From IMG/VR virus record IMGVR_UViG_3300045988_017181: a DNA stretch of 41,977 nt; one strand, written 5' to 3'. The DNA comes from a virus. The position numbers and the translations under genes are program-made. Under the pieces are notes generated by a model. The model worked only from the letters and a program-made list of their open reading frames with translations, did not search any database and had not been told where the DNA came from. This document shows positions 895 through 35,121 of the stretch, piece by piece (position 1 is the first letter of the stretch; each line of letters starts with the position of its first letter).

Positions 895-1137
895 CTTTAA
901 ATAAAACCCCTCAGGAACCCGTAGCTAGCTTGCTAGCATTAAGGGAACCCAAGGGGAACTGGAAGTAATTATAACTAGGATACTAGCTCAAGCTAGCCAC
1001 AAGAGTACGTAGAAGAGCATCAACAGTAGACACATCCCCATTAATCAAGGACATTATAAAGAGGATGATGATAATGATGATTTTGATGGTGATGAATACT
1101 TTATTTTTAGTGTTATTGGTATTGTTCATTAAGGTCA

Positions 1138-1227
1138 TTCCCATAAGGGTCTATAGGCACCTAAGGATTCCCATAAGGGTCTATGGACTCCCATAAGGGT
1201 CTATAGACTCCCATAAGGGTCTATAGG
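1138..1227. repeat. Four copies of a ~20-bp unit (T/A)(T/C)TCCCATAAGGGTCTAT(A)GG
   Basis: CCCATAAGGGTCTAT seen at 1140, 1170, 1190 and 1210. Confidence 0.9.
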
Positions 1228-1296
1228 TACCCTAAGGATTTTCTTAAGACTCCATCATCACTGATACCTTTTACTTCTGATACTTTCATTTCTAAC

Positions 1297-1357
1297 AAAA
1301 AGGGGGAGCTAGAAAAGACCTATATGTATATCTATATATGTCTTTCCTAGCCCCCCC
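1297..1357 (-). terminator. 18-bp stem, 20-nt AT loop and U5 intrinsic-type terminator downstream of terminase
   Basis: Arms 1302..1319 and 1340..1357. In minus-sense RNA the stem is complete with two G-U wobbles, whereas in plus sense those positions are A-C mismatches. Followed on the minus strand by TTTTT (1297..1301). Confidence 0.7.
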
Positions 1358-1376
1358 TAGGAGTATGGATTTTATT
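1351..1376 (-). promoter_or_regulatory. Phage-RNAP-type promoter copy (AATAAAATCCATACTCCTAGGGGGGG), right-end position
   Basis: 23/26 match to the consensus AATAAAATCCATACTCCTAGGGAGAG, which occurs 5 more times. The ACTC..CTA..GGGAGA layout resembles the T7 promoter core and +1 region. Confidence 0.6.
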
Positions 1377-1452
1377 CTGAAATACCCTGTTTTCTCTATT
1401 ACATTGTCTTTATTATTTACTGAACAAGTGTTCAATACTAATAAAGTATATT

Positions 1453-4400
1453 TCAGTTATCACCTCTTGCTAGCTTGAATGTATACCCTTTATCCTTATA
1501 TCTGTCTACACCCTTAGAGGTACCTTTAGGGCTGTGCCTATCTTCAGTTACCATCACACCTCCGATATTGGACGTATAGAATCCATACAGGGACTCCATA
1601 GACTCCTCTAGCCATTCTTCGGTTAGTTCATTAATACCTTCATCAGCATCTACGCCCATGAAGTCCACAAGGTATTTAACTCCGATTGCCAAAGCATCCA
1701 GACGGTCATCATGAATAAGGGCACCCCTATCAACAGTGATACGAGTGAGCTGATAGAAACAAGCATATTTGTAGTCAGATTCAGGTACGGTAGAGTAGTC
1801 ATTCCTGATACACTCAGGAGTGACACACATTTTATGGTTTGAGATTACAGGTTCAAGAGTATCAATGATACGCAGTTCTTTTTGTCCTGTGGATTTGACT
1901 TCAGTAACCCCGCAGTTACTATAGGTTTTCTTTAGTACAGGTTCAAATAGTTTGATGTACATCCCGTCACCAAAATTACCCTCAATGACTACTTCATTGA
2001 CTTTGTACTTCTTAGCTACCTTAGCGAGCTTATTGAGGACTACATCAGAATAACCTCCCAATAGACCGCCTACTTCCATGACGTAGATGTAGCCGTTAAG
2101 GTAATACAAGATTGCATAACCAGTTTCGTCTTTCGATTCTATGAAATTTCAACAGCTTTCCACCCCTTATGGTGCTTACGAGTTCCCTTAGCTACCTTAC
2201 GAAGGTTCTGAGGGGTAAGCTCATGTTCTCTACAGAACTCTACAAGAGATTCTGGGGTGTAGTTGTTACCATTGGGGTCTGTAATAAGATAACGCTTACC
2301 AGTACCGTAGTTATGAGGGGTATCCCCCTTCTTAAACCTAGTATCAAAGCAATCTCTACATACAGTACCCGTTCTACGTTTAGGCATATACTTGTTGCAA
2401 ACGGAGCATCTAACGGTAGCTACGTCACCTCCTGCCCTGCTGTTCCAACCCATGTTTAGCTCAGGTCTCAACACATATTCCATGTTAAGAGCTTCAGCTT
2501 TAGGGAGCATCTTAATTAGAGAGATCTCAACATTTTCTTTACCAAGGTTCCTAAGGATTTCTCCTACAGGACGCTTTGAGCAGAAGTGCTGTGAGAGTCT
2601 ATAATTCAAAGATCTTCTAGTAATGCCAACATATCCACTTGCTAGGTCATTATTACCTTTTTCGTGAATATGGTAAACTTTGTACAAACGGGTTTTAGCT
2701 CTAAAGTTGTTGATTTTCATATTTATGTTTAGTAGTTGTTAATTACTTTCTTATGGTCGCCCATAAGTCCAGACTATATCTTTTTCACCCCTGTTTCCCA
2801 CTAACACTCAGCGGTACATAATAGTCGTTACACCTTCCTAAATTAGGCTTGGCTCGGTATTATCTCTTAGAGACGTTCACCGAATTTAAGGGTTTTATTT
2901 AATGACGAGGCAAGACAGTTCACCACGTCCCGAAGGGTCAACACATAGAATTTTATGTGTATATGGCACAACCTCATTAGAGGCTGCATGATAGTAGAAG
3001 TAAGAATCTCCCTTAAGGCCCATCGTAGGACACTCATCAACTGGAACCCTCTTAGAAGGCTCAGGGAGCCACGTGAGCTTCATTGGAGCCTCGTCTAAGG
3101 GGAACATACCTACGATGAGGTCACGAAGCCGTAGAGGGTATTTATCGGCGTCTGAGAGGGTCGTGTCAAGCATGAACTGCAGAGCGAAGCCTGCCTTACG
3201 ATAAGATAGTTCACGCTTCTGTAGATCTTCTTCAGAGAACCTAAGGGGGTCTGTAGGCTTACCTGCCCAACGCTTAGGATCCTTGTCGTACTTGTCAGCA
3301 ATGATAGAGGCCAATCTATCGCCATAGGAGGCTCTATGAGAGTCATCATAGGGATACCTAGCGGGATAGATTACAGCCGTGTATCCGCGCTCCTGTAGCT
3401 CGTTATAGAGGCTCATTTCATTCTGGGGGGTGCCCAGATAGATGATCTTTTTACCTTCACCAGGCTTTAGGACAGCGTCGAACTCTTTGACGAGCTCGAA
3501 CAACTGGTCTCTAAGAACCTGAGTGAAGGAATTAGATGGAACTTCCACCTTTATGTTAAGGTAAGGTCGTTAGTCTTACCCCATCGTCTTTTATTTGAGT
3601 CTACTGCGTTTTCAGTAGCAGTAACAAACTTACAATGATCCCTAGAGTAGAGTCCACAGTTGCCCTTCTTGATGTCCTTATCAAGGTGCATGCTAGAGTC
3701 CTTTTCCCATTCTTCATAGCCTTCTACCTCGTGAATAGTATTCAAGAAGGTAGTAAAGTTATGCCACCTAGGATCTACCTTACAGCCTACATAGCTAGTT
3801 TTGTAGTTACCATAAGCTCTCTTAAGCATGTTAGCCCACAGGTCATAGATCTTGCGGATGATGCTATTAGAGCCTCTAGCAGGGATTCTAATAGGAGACC
3901 CAATGAACCCTACACCATAGGCCGTAGGTTCCATAAAGTCTTCAAACTTACCTGCCTTAATGTTGCAGGTCTGAACATCAATGACTGTACCTGTCTTGAC
4001 AAACTGAATGACAGCCCTAGGATGCTTAACTTTACCATTAGGAAGTTTCTGCTTCTTAGTTCTAGACAGGATCTTAATAAGACCCTTAGGAGTTTCGTAA
4101 GTTTTGTTAATTTCGTACATAGTTATGTTCCTTATAATTGACGATGCTTCATATCTCTATGAAGACCAGACTATATCTTATACCAAAAGGTATCCCCATT
4201 TTTCGAGTCACTTGACCCTACATAATAGTCGTTACACCTGCTAAATAGCTCGGCTCGGTATTGTCTTTCCTAGTTAGGACTGAGTTCCACCGAATTTAAG
4301 GGGTTTAAAGACGACATGGTTAAAGTTTATCGTCTGCGACAATGATGTCTGCACGGGAACCTGTTAGCTGGCCCTTAATACCCACAGACTTAACTGAAGG

Positions 4401-22010: not shown

Positions 22011-23908
22011 TTAAACCTGAGCAGTCTTAACGATAACACCAACGGCTTCGGGACGAAGACCGCCGTGACCCCAAACGGACATACTTGTCCGCTAGACTAT
22101 CGCTTACCCCTTAGGGTTCTTTTCATTTAGTCGTTGCTTGTGCCAATAAAGGATCATCTCAGCATCATGTCTTTTAAGCCTAAGATGCGGGATGATTGCC
22201 TTTAATACTTTAGTAGCAGTTCCGTAGAACGATGCACCAAAGTTTAATTTAAACTCTTTAATATTTTCTTTCGTTGTCTTGTAGATCTTACCGCCGTACG
22301 TGCTTTGGATTAGTTCTACAGAACAAACATCAGATTTTTGTACATGAATCTTAAGCCAGTGTTCTCTACCGGAACACCTAAGATACCCATCACCATCAAT
22401 ATATCCTGCCAACCATGAAGGACTGGCATTCTTCTTATATCTAGTTGGCCCTGTATCAGCTCTAGATTCTTTAGCAAACTTCCTAAGCTCATCCACCTGC
22501 TCTTGGGTGAGATTAACTCCTGAAAGTTCTCTACGTTTATCAAGCATTCTTTGGAAATGCTTTCCTTTAATCACCATGTGTTTGATGATGTGCGGCAAGA
22601 ACTTTTCTAAGTCATTCTTACTCGACACCCGCCAACACTTTTGATTCTTAACTTCTATATTGCGGATGCTCCCTACATCGTAGGCATCTCTTAGATCTTG
22701 AAGGAGCTTAAAGCCTCTCCCTCTATTGTCGATCTGAACAATTGAAAACTGTAGACATATACGAAAATGACCGTCTACAGTCTTATTAAAGTAAAAACTA
22801 AGGGCTCCGTCTGCATCTACGAACCCCGCAACATATTTATTTAGAGTTTCATTATAGTTACTCATCTCTGTATACACCTATACTGTTTTATGAGTTATTT
22901 GGCTTCAATCGGGTTGTCTAAAAAGAGTTTCCCGTTATTTAGAAAAGATTACGCGACAGGTTAGTTTATCGCGTACTTGGCAATGATCTGGTCAGCCTGA
23001 TATTCAGCTCGACGAGCACGTTCCATAGCGAGATCCTTGAGCTTCACCGTACCAACAGCGGAACGATGGAAGACAATGCCCTGAAGACCCGCAGCCTGGA
23101 TACTCGCACTAAGAGCGTGCTTGCCATCAATGCCCTCATTCAGAAGGTGCGGAACTTCAATGACTTCAAAACCGCAAATCGTCTGGAGCTTGCCCGTGTT
23201 CGGATCAAAGAGGGCATGATAGTTAGCCGCATCAGGCATAAGAGCCTTCATGACAGCAGAGTAGCCTTCAGGCGTGAGAAGGCAATAGCGGTCACCCTGC
23301 GGGACGTAGTTCTTCGTCATCTGAGCACGAGCCGCGAGGAGACCCTCAAGGATCTTATTGCCATACTTAGCTTCCTGCGAAATCTCAAGACCCGTAACAA
23401 ACTCAAAGGCCTTACCCGTACCGGGAACCTTGTCAGTATCAGTATCATTGTCGGGAATGTTACCGTCCTTGAACTTAGCGTCCTTAGCGGCCTCATTGGC
23501 AAGCTCATTGATAATAGCACAGTCAGCGCCCATAGCGAGAGCTTCACCAAGCTGACGGGAGTATTCAACTCGAACGTCATAATGGTTCATCGCATCGTCG
23601 ATATCCGTGATAAGGCAGTCAGCCGTAAGGAGACCGTCAATAGCGATGACACGCTCATTGTGTTCCATCTTCTTACGCTGGTCATCAAGGGAGTTACCCG
23701 GAGCAAGATACTTAGCACGGGTACGACCCATAACAGCGAACGAAGCACTCTTACCGTGCGAAATCGTTCGAACCTGATGACGAGACATCATAACGGAGGT
23801 GCGAGCAAAAGCAGTCAGAACTTCACCCGTGAAGACCTTCATAAAGAGTGCATCACGCTCGCCCGCAGAGAGAGCCTGACCAGGATTGGAAATACCAGTA
23901 ACAGCCAT
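22011..23908 (-). CDS. Major capsid protein (T7 gp10A-like), split: join(22968..23908, 22011..22083), ~337 aa
   Basis: The listed ORF ends ...ADQIIAKYAIN*. The T7-like C-terminus GHGGLRPEAVGVIVKTAQV* is encoded 884 nt downstream in a short frame. The spliced junction is predicted as ...AKYAI/MSVWGHGGLRPEA... Confidence 0.8.
22084..22967 (-). mobile_element. Group I intron in the capsid gene (884 nt)
   Basis: 8-bp P1: exon TACGCGAT (22975..22968) pairs with GTCGCGTA (22957..22950), with a U-G at the splice site. P/Q-like AATAACGGGAAAC / CAACCCGATT; R-like AACGACTAAATG and S-like AAGCGATAGTCTAGC near the 3' end. The last nucleotide is G (22084). Confidence 0.75.
22104..22877 (-). CDS. Intron-encoded LAGLIDADG homing endonuclease (two-motif)
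   Basis: YVAGFVDADGALSF and WLAGYIDGDGYL motifs. The track start is GTG (22877); the ATG at 22865 has an AGGTG RBS. The 3' end of the ORF overlaps the R element and P8. Confidence 0.85.
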   Translation of the reverse strand: MYTEMSNYNETLNKYVAGFVDADGALSFYFNKTVDGHFRICLQFSIVQIDNRGRGFKLLQDLRDAYDVGSIRNIEVKNQKCWRVSSKNDLEKFLPHIIKHMVIKGKHFQRMLDKRRELSGVNLTQEQVDELRKFAKESRADTGPTRYKKNASPSWLAGYIDGDGYLRCSGREHWLKIHVQKSDVCSVELIQSTYGGKIYKTTKENIKEFKLNFGASFYGTATKVLKAIIPHLRLKRHDAEMILYWHKQRLNEKNPKG

Positions 23909-26735: not shown

Positions 26736-27259
26736 TAAATTTCCTTGTAAAAAGTTTTGTACGAAGAGTAACCCAAGTGTTTCTCATAGGTATTTTCCAA
26801 CATCTTATTGTTGAGCGTGTTGGCGTTAGAGAAGGCTAGTAGTCTTACGTTAGTACATGCCCTATTTTCAAGAGCATAAGCCATTGCTCTAGACAAACCA
26901 AGACCCTTTTGGAAAGCTACAGTGCACTCTTCATTTAGAAAAGTTACTCCCTCAGGTGCATACCAAGGTCTCCCCCTAGACACTAGGGATGCACCCGAGA
27001 GAGCATTTTCTTTGTTATAGAAAACAAGGATGATGAAGTCTTCAAATTCACCACTAATGACACCCTTAAGAAACTTACGCACTACCTTTACGTCAGCATA
27101 TTTCTTAATGAAAGGGAGGGAGTCAGGGTCATCTTTGATGATCTTCGCACCCTTGTCGATGATCTGTTCTAGGATGTCTTCATCATTAGGTTGCAAGACA
27201 CCAATCCTAGACACGTTACTTAGGGATGTTAGTCCCTCTGCCAGAACCCACATAATCAA
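26735..27259 (-). CDS. GNAT-family N-acetyltransferase (gene 7 position)
   Basis: Acetyl-CoA motif-A-like VAFQKGLGLSRAMAYALE. The track start overlaps the upstream gene by 44 nt. A GTG 2 nt after the upstream stop (NVSRIG) is an alternative start. Confidence 0.55.
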   Translation of the reverse strand: MIMWVLAEGLTSLSNVSRIGVLQPNDEDILEQIIDKGAKIIKDDPDSLPFIKKYADVKVVRKFLKGVISGEFEDFIILVFYNKENALSGASLVSRGRPWYAPEGVTFLNEECTVAFQKGLGLSRAMAYALENRACTNVRLLAFSNANTLNNKMLENTYEKHLGYSSYKTFYKEI

Positions 27260-27610: not shown

Positions 27611-27977
27611 AGAAATTCGGCGCGGAAACCTCTGTCTTCAGACAGGGGAGGAAGCGCCGTCCTCCTTTCTAAGTTCGGTTAAATAGGTGCTTCTCTTTTC
27701 GAGAAGCGTTTGGCGGATACCCGCAGGTTCCGCTTACACGGCCCGAAGGCCTGTTGACATCCTTCGCCAATGTTGGAAGGGGTTTGGTGCCTGCAACACC
27801 GCTCCTACCTCTCAGAGCTTTTAATCACAGGCCGCAGAGCGTGGAACTAGGATGTACATCCCACGGTGCCTATACATTCCCAACCAACGTAGCGCCTCTC
27901 GAAAGAGGGGCGCTGAGGCTAGTCAATAAAGGCTCTTTCAAGCCTCTGCCTTTAGGCAGGGGTTATTGACGTCTTCC
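27611..27977. ncRNA. Unclassified GC-rich, highly structured, ORF-free element (~370 nt); functional strand unresolved
   Basis: At least 10 local helices (plus coordinates): 27618-23/27654-59 enclosing 27629-36/27641-48; 27689-95/27701-07; 27713-16/27721-24; 27740-43/27748-51; 27761-65/27776-80; 27786-89/27797-800; 27891-900/27905-14; 27922-29/27963-70 enclosing 27943-50/27955-62. An 8-bp long-range pair joins 27647-54 and 27973-80. No ORF over 20 codons on the gene strand. Confidence 0.6.
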
Positions 27978-28033: not shown

Positions 28034-28798
28034 TTAAAAAGGATTGTACTTCTTGGGTAGACCCTCAGATTCACTTAAAGGATAATCTTCATAGTGCAAG
28101 ATTCTAGCCATTGTTGCCTCTCTAATGGCATCCTCTTCAGTAAGACCCTGAGACTTGAAGGCTTTCAAAACCTCAGGCCACCATTCAGAATCAGGATGCC
28201 CATTAAGGAGCTTATTGGCTTTCACAGGGCCATAAGTGGGACACCCCTTATAGCCGTCTGTAACGTCCCCTACTAGGGTCTGATAGCACAGCCATTTCTT
28301 GGAGTCCTTCTCAGTGATGTTATGCAAGACATCATTACCGAAATCATAGAAGTAACCGGGGATTGTCTTGAAATCCTTGTCCATAGACACTGCGACACAA
28401 ATATCTTTATAGACAGGACTAGTGCAGTAGATACCCACAACATCATCAGCTTCAAGGTACTTGACTGTATGAGAAATGTAGGTTTCTTTAATCTTGTCTA
28501 CAAGACCTTTGTAACAACAAGGTTTACGATTAGATCGCCTATTGGACTTATAGTCAGGATTGTAGGCTTTCCTAAAGTTATCCTCATCGGAGAAACAGAA
28601 TACATAGGTAATCTCTTCGCCAACGAAATGCTTATTCAGCTTCTCATCAATAGCAATAAGCATGTCGGTAAAGTAATCCCATGCGTCATCTACTTCAGCA
28701 TGACAAGTCCAAAGACCATCACCCCAGTCGATATCCTTCTGGACAGCAGAGGATGCCTTAAAGGCTAGAATATCACCGTCTACAAAAGCATATCTCAT
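28034..28798 (-). CDS. 5'-3' exonuclease (T7 gp6-like, FEN family)
   Basis: MRYAFVDGDILAFKAS N-terminus with acidic clusters typical of the PIN/FEN fold. Synteny after the DNA polymerase. Confidence 0.8.
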   Translation of the reverse strand: MRYAFVDGDILAFKASSAVQKDIDWGDGLWTCHAEVDDAWDYFTDMLIAIDEKLNKHFVGEEITYVFCFSDEDNFRKAYNPDYKSNRRSNRKPCCYKGLVDKIKETYISHTVKYLEADDVVGIYCTSPVYKDICVAVSMDKDFKTIPGYFYDFGNDVLHNITEKDSKKWLCYQTLVGDVTDGYKGCPTYGPVKANKLLNGHPDSEWWPEVLKAFKSQGLTEEDAIREATMARILHYEDYPLSESEGLPKKYNPF

Positions 28799-34823: not shown

Positions 34824-34911
34824 TGGTGCCCTAGGAGGGAATCGAACCCTCACGAGCCTTGCTTCTCCACTGATTCTAATTCAGTTGTGTATACCATTTC
34901 ACCACTAGGGC
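34824..34911 (-). tRNA. tRNA-Leu (anticodon UAG), type II with a long variable arm; CCA encoded
   Basis: Manual cloverleaf: acceptor GCCCTAG/CTAGGGC; anticodon stem ACTGA/TCAGT with loop ATTAGAA; T arm GAGGG-TTCGATT-CCCTC; 17-nt variable region. Confidence 0.85.
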
Positions 34912-35044: not shown

Positions 35045-35121
35045 TGGTCTCTCCTACAGGATTCGAACCTGTGACCGTATGCTTAGAAGGCATATGCTCT
35101 ATCCAACTGAGCTAAGGAGAG
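35045..35121 (-). tRNA. tRNA-Arg (anticodon UCU); CCA encoded
   Basis: Manual cloverleaf: acceptor CTCTCCT/AGGAGAG; D arm GCTC-AGTTGGATA-GAGC; anticodon stem TATGC/GCATA with loop CTTCTAA; T arm ACAGG-TTCGAAT-CCTGT. Confidence 0.9.

Follow-up and report, generated by a model that had tools for sequence, protein, structure and literature searches.

A compact insert, probably a mobile group I intron with a LAGLIDADG endonuclease gene, close to the 3′ end of the major capsid gene in an uncultured T7-like gut phage

The IMG/VR record IMGVR_UViG_3300045988_017181 is a stretch of 41,977 nucleotides (nt), hereafter called the window, from an uncultured T7-like phage of the gut. We examined its minus-strand capsid region, in which all genes lie on the minus strand. 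An open reading frame (ORF) at window positions 23908..22961 (-) matches the Gp10A-like capsid family of Pfam (E 1.2e-56) and, if read unspliced, ends with ...QIIAKYAIN*. The conserved C-terminal tail, GHGGLRPEAVGVIVKTAQV*, is encoded separately after an insert. Both observations had been made in an earlier, sequence-only reading of this DNA, and both are correct. The insert occupies window positions 22967..22072 (-) and contains a gene for a LAGLIDADG homing endonuclease; its features, described below, point to a mobile group I intron. Judged against intron-less alleles, it is 896 nt long and interrupts the capsid gene 20 codons before the stop (a split Met codon plus 19 codons), rather than 884 nt long and 24 codons from the end as previously estimated.

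The boundaries of the insert are fixed to the nucleotide by uninterrupted relatives. A megablast comparison of the region with GenBank phages returned two contigs of uncultured phages from the human gut in which the insert is missing, MT838157 (94% nucleotide identity) and MT836074 (82%). The alignment with MT838157 is contiguous apart from one gap, which corresponds exactly to window 22967..22072, and the placement of this gap is unique because the window reads ...GCGAT|AAAC... at one side and ...GTTTG|GGGTCAC at the other. Both contigs read ...GCCAAGTACGCTATGGGTCACGGTGG..., equivalent to ...AKYAMGHGGLRPEAVG..., with the uninterrupted stretch ...AAGTACGCTATGGGTCACGG... A pattern scan of IMG/VR yielded at least 119 usable uninterrupted sites, at least 25 of which are at least 80% identical to the flanking exons of the window. 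One of the 25 or more close intron-less relatives, L151, carries GCCAAGTACGCGAT|GGGTCACGG, which is the predicted ligated junction. From the intron-less alleles it therefore follows that exon 1 ends at U22968 and that the intron ends at G22072.

With these boundaries, exon 1 (22968..23908, minus strand) comprises 313 codons plus the AU of Met-314, its end being set by the intron-less relatives L001, L002, and L151. The intron (22072..22967, minus strand) starts with AAACUAACCU... and ends with ...GUCCGUUUG, and exon 2 (22011..22071, minus strand) contributes the G of the Met codon, followed by GHGGLRPEAVGVIVKTAQV and a TAA stop. The predicted ligated junction is ATTGCCAAGTACGCGAT|GGGTCACGGCGGTCTT, such that the joined exons read ...AKYA-M-GHGGLRPEAVGVIVKTAQV*. 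The spliced frame of 941 + 61 = 1002 nt would encode a capsid protein of 333 amino acids (aa) ending in ...AKYAMGHGGLRPEAVGVIVKTAQV. This protein aligns from residue 1 to 333 in a single piece with its closest relatives, namely the top-listed intron-less capsids, and at least 80% of it is present in 1390 phage records. Its ...AKYAMGHGG... segment is the T7-family consensus, and the nearest isolates by spliced capsid are Delftia and Ralstonia phages with approximately 60% aa identity.

The sequence-only reading was right to propose a group I intron with a LAGLIDADG ORF just before the conserved capsid C-terminus, but it set the 3′ splice site 12 nt too early. It had named AKYAI-MSVWGHGG as the sole frame-preserving junction compatible with an exon-final U and an intron-final G. 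The nucleotide G22072 also obeys these rules (896 - 884 = 12 nt) and yields the junction of the intron-less alleles, AKYA-M-GHGG, which is supported by L001, L002, L151, and 24 other intron-less sequences, by the P9 hairpin, and by P10 pairing. We rejected G22084 as the 3′ splice site: It lies inside the loop of P9, offers no P10, and would create an MSVW insertion that is absent from all homologues. The MSVW codons instead correspond to the 3′ strand of P9 and the UUUG tail, which belong to the intron. Likewise, the junction peptide formerly suggested for mass spectrometry, YAIMSVWGHGGLR, occurs in no homologue, and the expected tryptic peptide spanning the junction is YAMGHGGLRPEAVGVIVK.

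The intron can be folded into a compact set of group I helices, all on the minus strand. The last 8 nt of exon 1 (UACGCGAU, 22968..22975) pair with an internal guide sequence (GUCGCGUA, 22950..22957) to form a P1 helix of 8 bp with a 10-nt loop and a U22968·G22957 wobble at the splice site. This is the perfect pairing of TACGCGAT (22975..22968) with GTCGCGTA (22957..22950), beginning 10 nt into the insert, that had been recognized before. Just 5′ of the guide G, the segment ACCU (22958..22961) can pair with GGGU at the start of exon 2 (22071..22068) as a 4-bp P10. The P1 loop also carries an in-frame UAA (22961..22963), two codons past the 5′ splice site, which would be expected to keep ribosomes that have translated exon 1 from running into the core. 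There is no P2, as two A residues lead directly into the 5′ strand of P3 (UCUUUUC, 22942..22948), whose partner is GAAAAGA (22118..22124). A potential P2 formed by UCUAAA/UUUAGA (22943..22938/22923..22918) was rejected, given that its strands would cut across P4 and that relatives do not preserve it.

Joining region J3/4 (UAAAUAA) is followed by P4 (22910..22934), in which CGGG (22934..22931) pairs with CCCG (22913..22910). P4 encloses A-rich J4/5 and J5/4 segments and a vestigial P5 of 3 bp (UCU/AGA), which is present in the minimum-free-energy fold and is a short hairpin in relatives, often with a GNRA loop. The 5′ strand of P6 (UUG-AA-GCCAA, 22899..22908) pairs with UUGGC-A-CAA (22138..22146, assigned by comparative alignment) across a 752-nt loop, L6, that holds the endonuclease gene. 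After J6/7 (GCA) comes the 5′ strand of P7, A(C)GACUA with a bulged C (22128..22134), which pairs with 22094..22099 and, together with P3, makes a P3/P7 pseudoknot of the canonical group I type. The P8 hairpin ACCC-UAAG-GGGU (22106..22117) separates the P3 3′ strand from J8/7 (AAGCGA) and the 3′ strand of P7 (UAGUCU), which comparative alignment places at 22094..22105. The 5′ strand of P7 and the J8/7-P7 segment correspond to the R-like AACGACTAAATG and S-like AAGCGATAGTCTAGC elements, previously noted to flank a small hairpin (a 4-bp stem with a tetraloop), and the P7 and P8 assignments made then agree with ours. The intron closes with the P9 hairpin CGGAC-AAGUAU-GUCCG and then UUUG with the terminal G (22072..22091). 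Without L6, the core amounts to 69 + 75 = 144 nt. When L6 is replaced by GAAA, the minimum-free-energy fold contains P1, P3, P4, P5, P6, P8, and P9 (z = -3.6), and none of 200 shuffled sequences folds as well.

These helices represent more than chance complementarity because compensatory changes keep them in approximately 50 homologous introns. Homologues of the endonuclease number 78 in public assemblies, with identities from 99% to approximately 25% and many on contigs of 40-45 kb, and a profile search of IMG/VR with the protein found at least 80 loci. In approximately 50 non-redundant loci, the same short RNA modules are present on both sides of the ORF. We aligned the ORF-excised core from 38 distinct sequences over 90 columns, without gaps thanks to the fixed geometry of the modules. 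Standard pairs occupy 98.7% of the 1026 pair cells in this alignment, compared to 35-44% when the 3′ partners are slid by 1-3 columns. Compensatory changes are seen in 20 of the 27 pairs (P3, 7/7; P4, 3/4; P6, 6/6 tested; P8, 3/4; P7, 1/6), and the covariation score of 0.708 exceeds the 0.169 of shuffled alignments, with none of 500 shuffles reaching the observed value. RNAalifold predicts P3, P4, P6, and P8 without any supplied structure.

Individual elements behave as expected for such a core. In P7, five pairs are invariant, whereas the sixth varies between A-U (28 sequences) and G-C (10 sequences); the conserved G-C pair beside the bulged nucleotide is the putative guanosine site. P8 is paired in 100% of cells. 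J8/7 is AAGYKA-like in most of the 38 sequences, J3/4 is UAAAUAA-like, and J6/7 is GCA, with ACA in one sequence. P9 is compensated in relatives, where it takes forms such as CAGAC/GUCUG, CAUGC/GCAUG, CUAAC/GUUAG, and CACGC/GCGUG.

The guide sequence also tracks the exon to which it pairs. In homologous introns that share the capsid site of the window, substitutions in exon and guide go together: L003 combines C-to-U in the exon with G-to-A in the guide, and L005 combines G-to-A in the exon with C-to-U in the guide. Across at least 10 insertion sites of the family, the guide differs from site to site and complements a different exon end each time, always with U·G at the junction (for example, GCGCAGU|...GCUGCGU, CCCAAU|...GUUGGG, and AUUCAGU|...GCUGAAU). 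P10 spans 3-4 bp in all introns at the capsid site of the window and 5 bp (GUAAU/AUUAC) in L007, which is inserted elsewhere; its mean length is 2.8 bp versus 1.1 bp in shuffled loops. At the level of sequence, every mark that would be predicted for a group I intron is thus present, including the P1 U·G, P10, the P3/P7 pseudoknot, P4-P6, P8, and P9 with a terminal G.

The endonuclease ORF (22104..22865, minus strand) encodes 253 aa and matches LAGLIDADG_1 (PF00961, E 1.6e-11); as the earlier reading had it, this two-motif ORF overlaps the R element. An AGGUG lies 9 nt upstream of its AUG, and the 253-aa homologues start at the same AUG. The motifs AGFVDADG (residues 13-20) and AGYIDGDG (153-160) are invariant across 19 diverse homologues, with the residues G14, D17, D19, and G20 in the first and G154, D157, G158, D159, and G160 in the second. 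Profile comparisons with the PDB matched I-CreI-derived, I-OnuI, and I-MsoI chains (E 4e-27 to 5e-20), and full-length ORFs occur in dozens of independent assemblies. The gene is intact and conserved, and its product is predicted to be a monomeric, two-motif LAGLIDADG homing endonuclease. The last 43 nt of the ORF, including the stop, double as the 3′ strand of P6, J6/7, P7, J7/3, the 3′ strand of P3, and P8. In the clade of the window, the UAA stop spans the last base of P8 and J8/7, and in most other members the ORF stops directly after the 3′ strand of P7.

Relatives of the phage differ in whether they carry the intron. At least 25 close relatives have it (L009-L033) and at least 25 lack it among the IMG/VR matches listed, many of them from the same metagenome, and this presence/absence polymorphism exists among relatives that are more than 90% identical. 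The same site is occupied even in a capsid gene that is only 34% identical (L005). In L007, an intron with the same core and an endonuclease of 42% identity sits at a different capsid codon, approximately 243. More distantly related members occur within three further kinds of major head gene (two of the Pfam family Phage_capsid_2 and one of phrog_267), for approximately 10 sites overall, and in Pseudoalteromonas phage J2-1 a member adjoins the terminase gene. The family thus appears to prefer capsid genes. Two members can share one gene: In L049, they lie at about 975..1815 and about 2400..3295 of a single capsid gene, and in L043 a member of 140 nt that lacks the ORF (3340..3479), with P6 closed by a tetraloop, is located approximately 110 nt downstream of an ORF-bearing sibling (about 2315..3230) in the same capsid gene.

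Among 50,697 GenBank phage records, relatives of the endonuclease were found in only three records, which represent two phages. Of cultured phages, only Pseudomonas phage HHBS10_2 (PQ287653, L089) was found to harbor a close relative of the family, and there the intron follows codon 13 of the major head gene (MQLTSNTRAFIES|EQYSKF..., at about 4.5-6.1 kb). In its annotation, the long second capsid exon is missing, a hypothetical coding sequence on the opposite strand is listed instead, and the endonuclease is called "HNH endonuclease." This misnomer arises because PHROGs labels the matching families in this way. PHROG families 5046, 33155, and 12980, which match the LAGLIDADG protein, all carry this label, and the error spreads into phage annotations.

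Based on these data, the insert is very probably a mobile group I intron, for which we infer splicing, catalysis, and DNA cleavage. The capsid pre-mRNA would fold as a compact ribozyme composed of P1 and P3 to P9, with the P3/P7 pseudoknot and no P2. Free guanosine docked in P7 would act on the phosphate that follows U22968, within the U·G wobble that ends P1. With exon 2 then positioned by P10, the terminal G22072 would take the place of the free guanosine, and the exons would be joined to encode the 333-aa capsid. In a co-infection, the endonuclease is predicted to cut an intron-less capsid allele at the conserved site coding for AKYAMGHGG, and repair from the intron-bearing copy would install the intron. 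If so, a T7-like phage relies on RNA splicing for the late gene that it expresses most strongly, and gene callers, which end this capsid gene at ...AKYAIN, lose the conserved C-terminus. Because intron-plus and intron-minus relatives occur in roughly equal numbers among the matches listed, they may serve as a natural model for homing and for competition among gut phages that infect the same cell.

It could be argued that no splicing takes place and that a free-standing endonuclease gene has simply split the capsid gene, leaving a truncated protein that ends in ...AKYAIN and perhaps a separate 23-aa peptide, MSVWGHGG... Split genes beside free-standing endonucleases are known in T4-like phages, and an AUG at 22083 precedes the C-terminal fragment. 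However, this AUG has no Shine-Dalgarno sequence before it and sits within the conserved P9 hairpin. A split gene would also leave unexplained the approximately 140 nt of non-coding flanks, the compensated 27-pair helix set, and a guide that follows its exon. Moreover, the C-terminal motif belongs to one continuous protein in the top-listed homologues, in keeping with the 1390 records that hold at least 80% of the spliced form. We therefore regard a split gene as very unlikely. An intein deserves mention in that inteins are the usual setting of LAGLIDADG endonucleases in phages (PMC10448857, PMC7344957). Here, however, as the sequence-only reading had also pointed out, the ORF is in another frame than the capsid gene and is separated from it by stops; the capsid frame ends at the TAA at 22963..22961, two codons past the junction. 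With regard to a group II intron, no Rfam match for this kind of element was obtained in the region at E<=10, and the ORF is LAGLIDADG only, with no reverse transcriptase. An assembly artefact is contradicted by the same intron at the same site in more than 30 independent contigs (ENA, Logan, and IMG/VR). The reading frames and this independent recurrence refute all three of these ideas, to which we assign a negligible chance.

Several considerations nonetheless weigh against the interpretation as a self-splicing group I intron. The argument for splicing draws on sequences from an uncultured phage. The Rfam model for group I introns, RF00028, gives no match in the intron of the window at E<=10, and at E<=1 it misses every homologue in 11 loci, including the 140-nt ORF-less member of L043. 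In the alignment, the 5′ modules were placed by maximizing P3/P4/P6 complementarity downstream of the J3/4 motif, which inflates the support for P3, P4, and P6; for P7 and P8, fixed offsets were used, which keeps them clear of this bias. Finally, with a core of approximately 144 nt, no P2, and a P5 of approximately 3 bp, self-splicing without assistance is not assured. RF00028 was nevertheless able to pick out other group I introns in these scans, namely one in the terminase gene of the window (53.5 bits, gathering score 50) and others in L020 (70.4 bits) and L003 (39.5 bits). The failure therefore reflects the architecture of the LAGLIDADG family. The 752-nt ORF-containing loop was rejected as its cause, as the ORF-less L043 member is missed as well. 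It is acknowledged that RF00028 does not capture the full diversity or all subtypes of group I introns (Nawrocki et al., PMC6125680), and a match to this model is a matter of detection that does not define a group I intron. The small core raises the alternative that the ribozyme depends on a protein, such that its own LAGLIDADG product (or a host factor) would serve as maturase and capsid splicing would require prior translation of the intron ORF. Nearly all family members retain the ORF at full length, LAGLIDADG maturases do exist, with a bacterial example in the Thermotoga 23S intron (PMC3984707), and the core, which also lacks P5abc, is far below the 203-392 nt spanned by IA3 and IB4 introns in the GISSD alignments (PMC6125680). 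On the other hand, an ORF-less member exists naturally in L043, yet the ORF-bearing sibling in the same gene could supply the protein in trans. Also, GNRA loops in L5 or L9 of several members could provide tertiary contacts made by RNA only. We consider protein dependence improbable, albeit considerably less so than a split gene.

If the insert is a group I intron as we propose, the family may exemplify an undescribed, ultra-compact class. Its members would be defined by a core of approximately 130-160 nt, the absence of P2, a vestigial P5, a fixed geometry of P6, P7, and P8, LAGLIDADG-driven spread into at least 10 sites in at least four capsid families, escape from detection by RF00028, and the resulting mis-annotation of capsid genes. 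This classification is tentative, and we hold it to be somewhat less likely than its opposite. The measured core sizes range from approximately 129 to 161 nt, with a median of 145. In the GISSD alignments, IA3 introns span 205-374 nt and IB4 introns 203-392 nt (PMC6125680). Our literature searches on the smallest group I intron returned nothing, and the size comparison accordingly rests on these GISSD ranges. If the 140-nt form splices by itself, it would fall well below the lower bounds of 203-205 nt, a comparison limited to those two alignments. If it does not, the family would offer a phage example of a ribozyme with an obligate LAGLIDADG maturase. The richly covarying core of 140-145 nt makes the family a candidate for a minimal group I ribozyme, of interest for structural work and for intron-based RNA circularization, and the family exposes a blind spot of RF00028.

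Elements of this kind are known; less ordinary here are the very small core without P2, the failure of RF00028 to see it, and the family's apparent preference for capsid genes. The ORF for I-CreI sits in L6 of the Chlamydomonas 23S intron, and the ribosomal RNA (rRNA) introns as a whole, including the Thermotoga 23S intron with its maturase, resemble the window in placing a LAGLIDADG gene in a peripheral loop. The R and S elements of the window are likewise of the ...GACUA... / AAG.UAUAGUC type found in rRNA group I introns with LAGLIDADG ORFs. In contrast, the cores of those rRNA introns exceed 200 nt (the IA3 and IB4 ranges given above; PMC6125680), whereas the P2-less core of approximately 144 nt in the window resides in a protein-coding phage gene.

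Among T7-like phages, Bonocora and Shub reportedly described self-splicing group I introns. The introns of PhiI/W31 and cyanophage Pf-WMP3 resemble that of the window in that group I introns with homing endonucleases interrupt essential genes of T7-like phages. They differ in residing in DNA polymerase genes, where T7-like phage introns are known (PMC3428280), in encoding HNH endonucleases, and in belonging to subgroup IA2 with P7.1/P7.2, which RF00028 detects. Introns in capsid genes have been reported for lactococcal phage Tuc2009 and for mycobacteriophage LittleE of Cluster J (PMC3706429). For LittleE, splicing was demonstrated by reverse transcription PCR and protein sequencing, and the intron type was described as "unclear, most likely group I" (PMC3706429). 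LittleE shares with the window an interrupted major capsid gene, an exon ending in U, an intron ending in G, and an I-CreI-related endonuclease of the LAGLIDADG type (PMC3706429). Unlike the window, with its two-motif, sense-strand ORF in L6 and resolved core, LittleE is described as carrying a gene for a 177-aa endonuclease in the opposite direction. In addition, LittleE and Tuc2009 are siphoviruses of Gram-positive hosts, whereas the phage of the window is a T7-like podovirus.

Two further observations concern the capsid genes of this group. A GCG versus GCT difference at the Ala codon adjacent to the junction was considered as a mark of co-conversion or target immunity and was rejected, as 13 of 25 listed close intron-less alleles have GCG and 12 have GCT. 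The introns detected by RF00028 in the close relatives L020 (852..1545) and L003 (926..1544) are of a different kind and lie near codon 56 of the capsid gene, a position at which the window has no intron. By eye they are IA2-like, with extra helices after P7, and they have a long P8 insert that possibly contains an ORF. Some capsid genes in this phage group therefore hold two introns.

Elsewhere in the window, the group I intron matched by RF00028 (2750..2964, minus strand) splits the gene for the terminase large subunit, whose pieces at 3548..2898 and 2109..1456 correspond to phrog_38 positions 412-559 and 573-721. The terminase intron is followed by an ORF for a GIY-YIG/NUMOD endonuclease, and the ORFs of this region are located at 2142..2720 (-) and 3554..4120 (-). 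An endonuclease-like ORF (phrog_2081) abuts the upstream terminase piece and may represent a further interruption. At 27753..27970 (-), the HEARO RNA family RF02033, the omega-RNA family of the IscB/IsrB type, gives a strong match of 139 bits against a gathering score of 83, a surprising find for a T7-like phage. This site lies between a gene for a 5′-3′ exonuclease (28798..28037) and a 174-aa ORF without a family match (27259..26738). Lastly, the early/middle region carries two tRNA genes, Leu(tag) and Arg(tct), at window positions 34824..34911 (-) and 35045..35121 (-).

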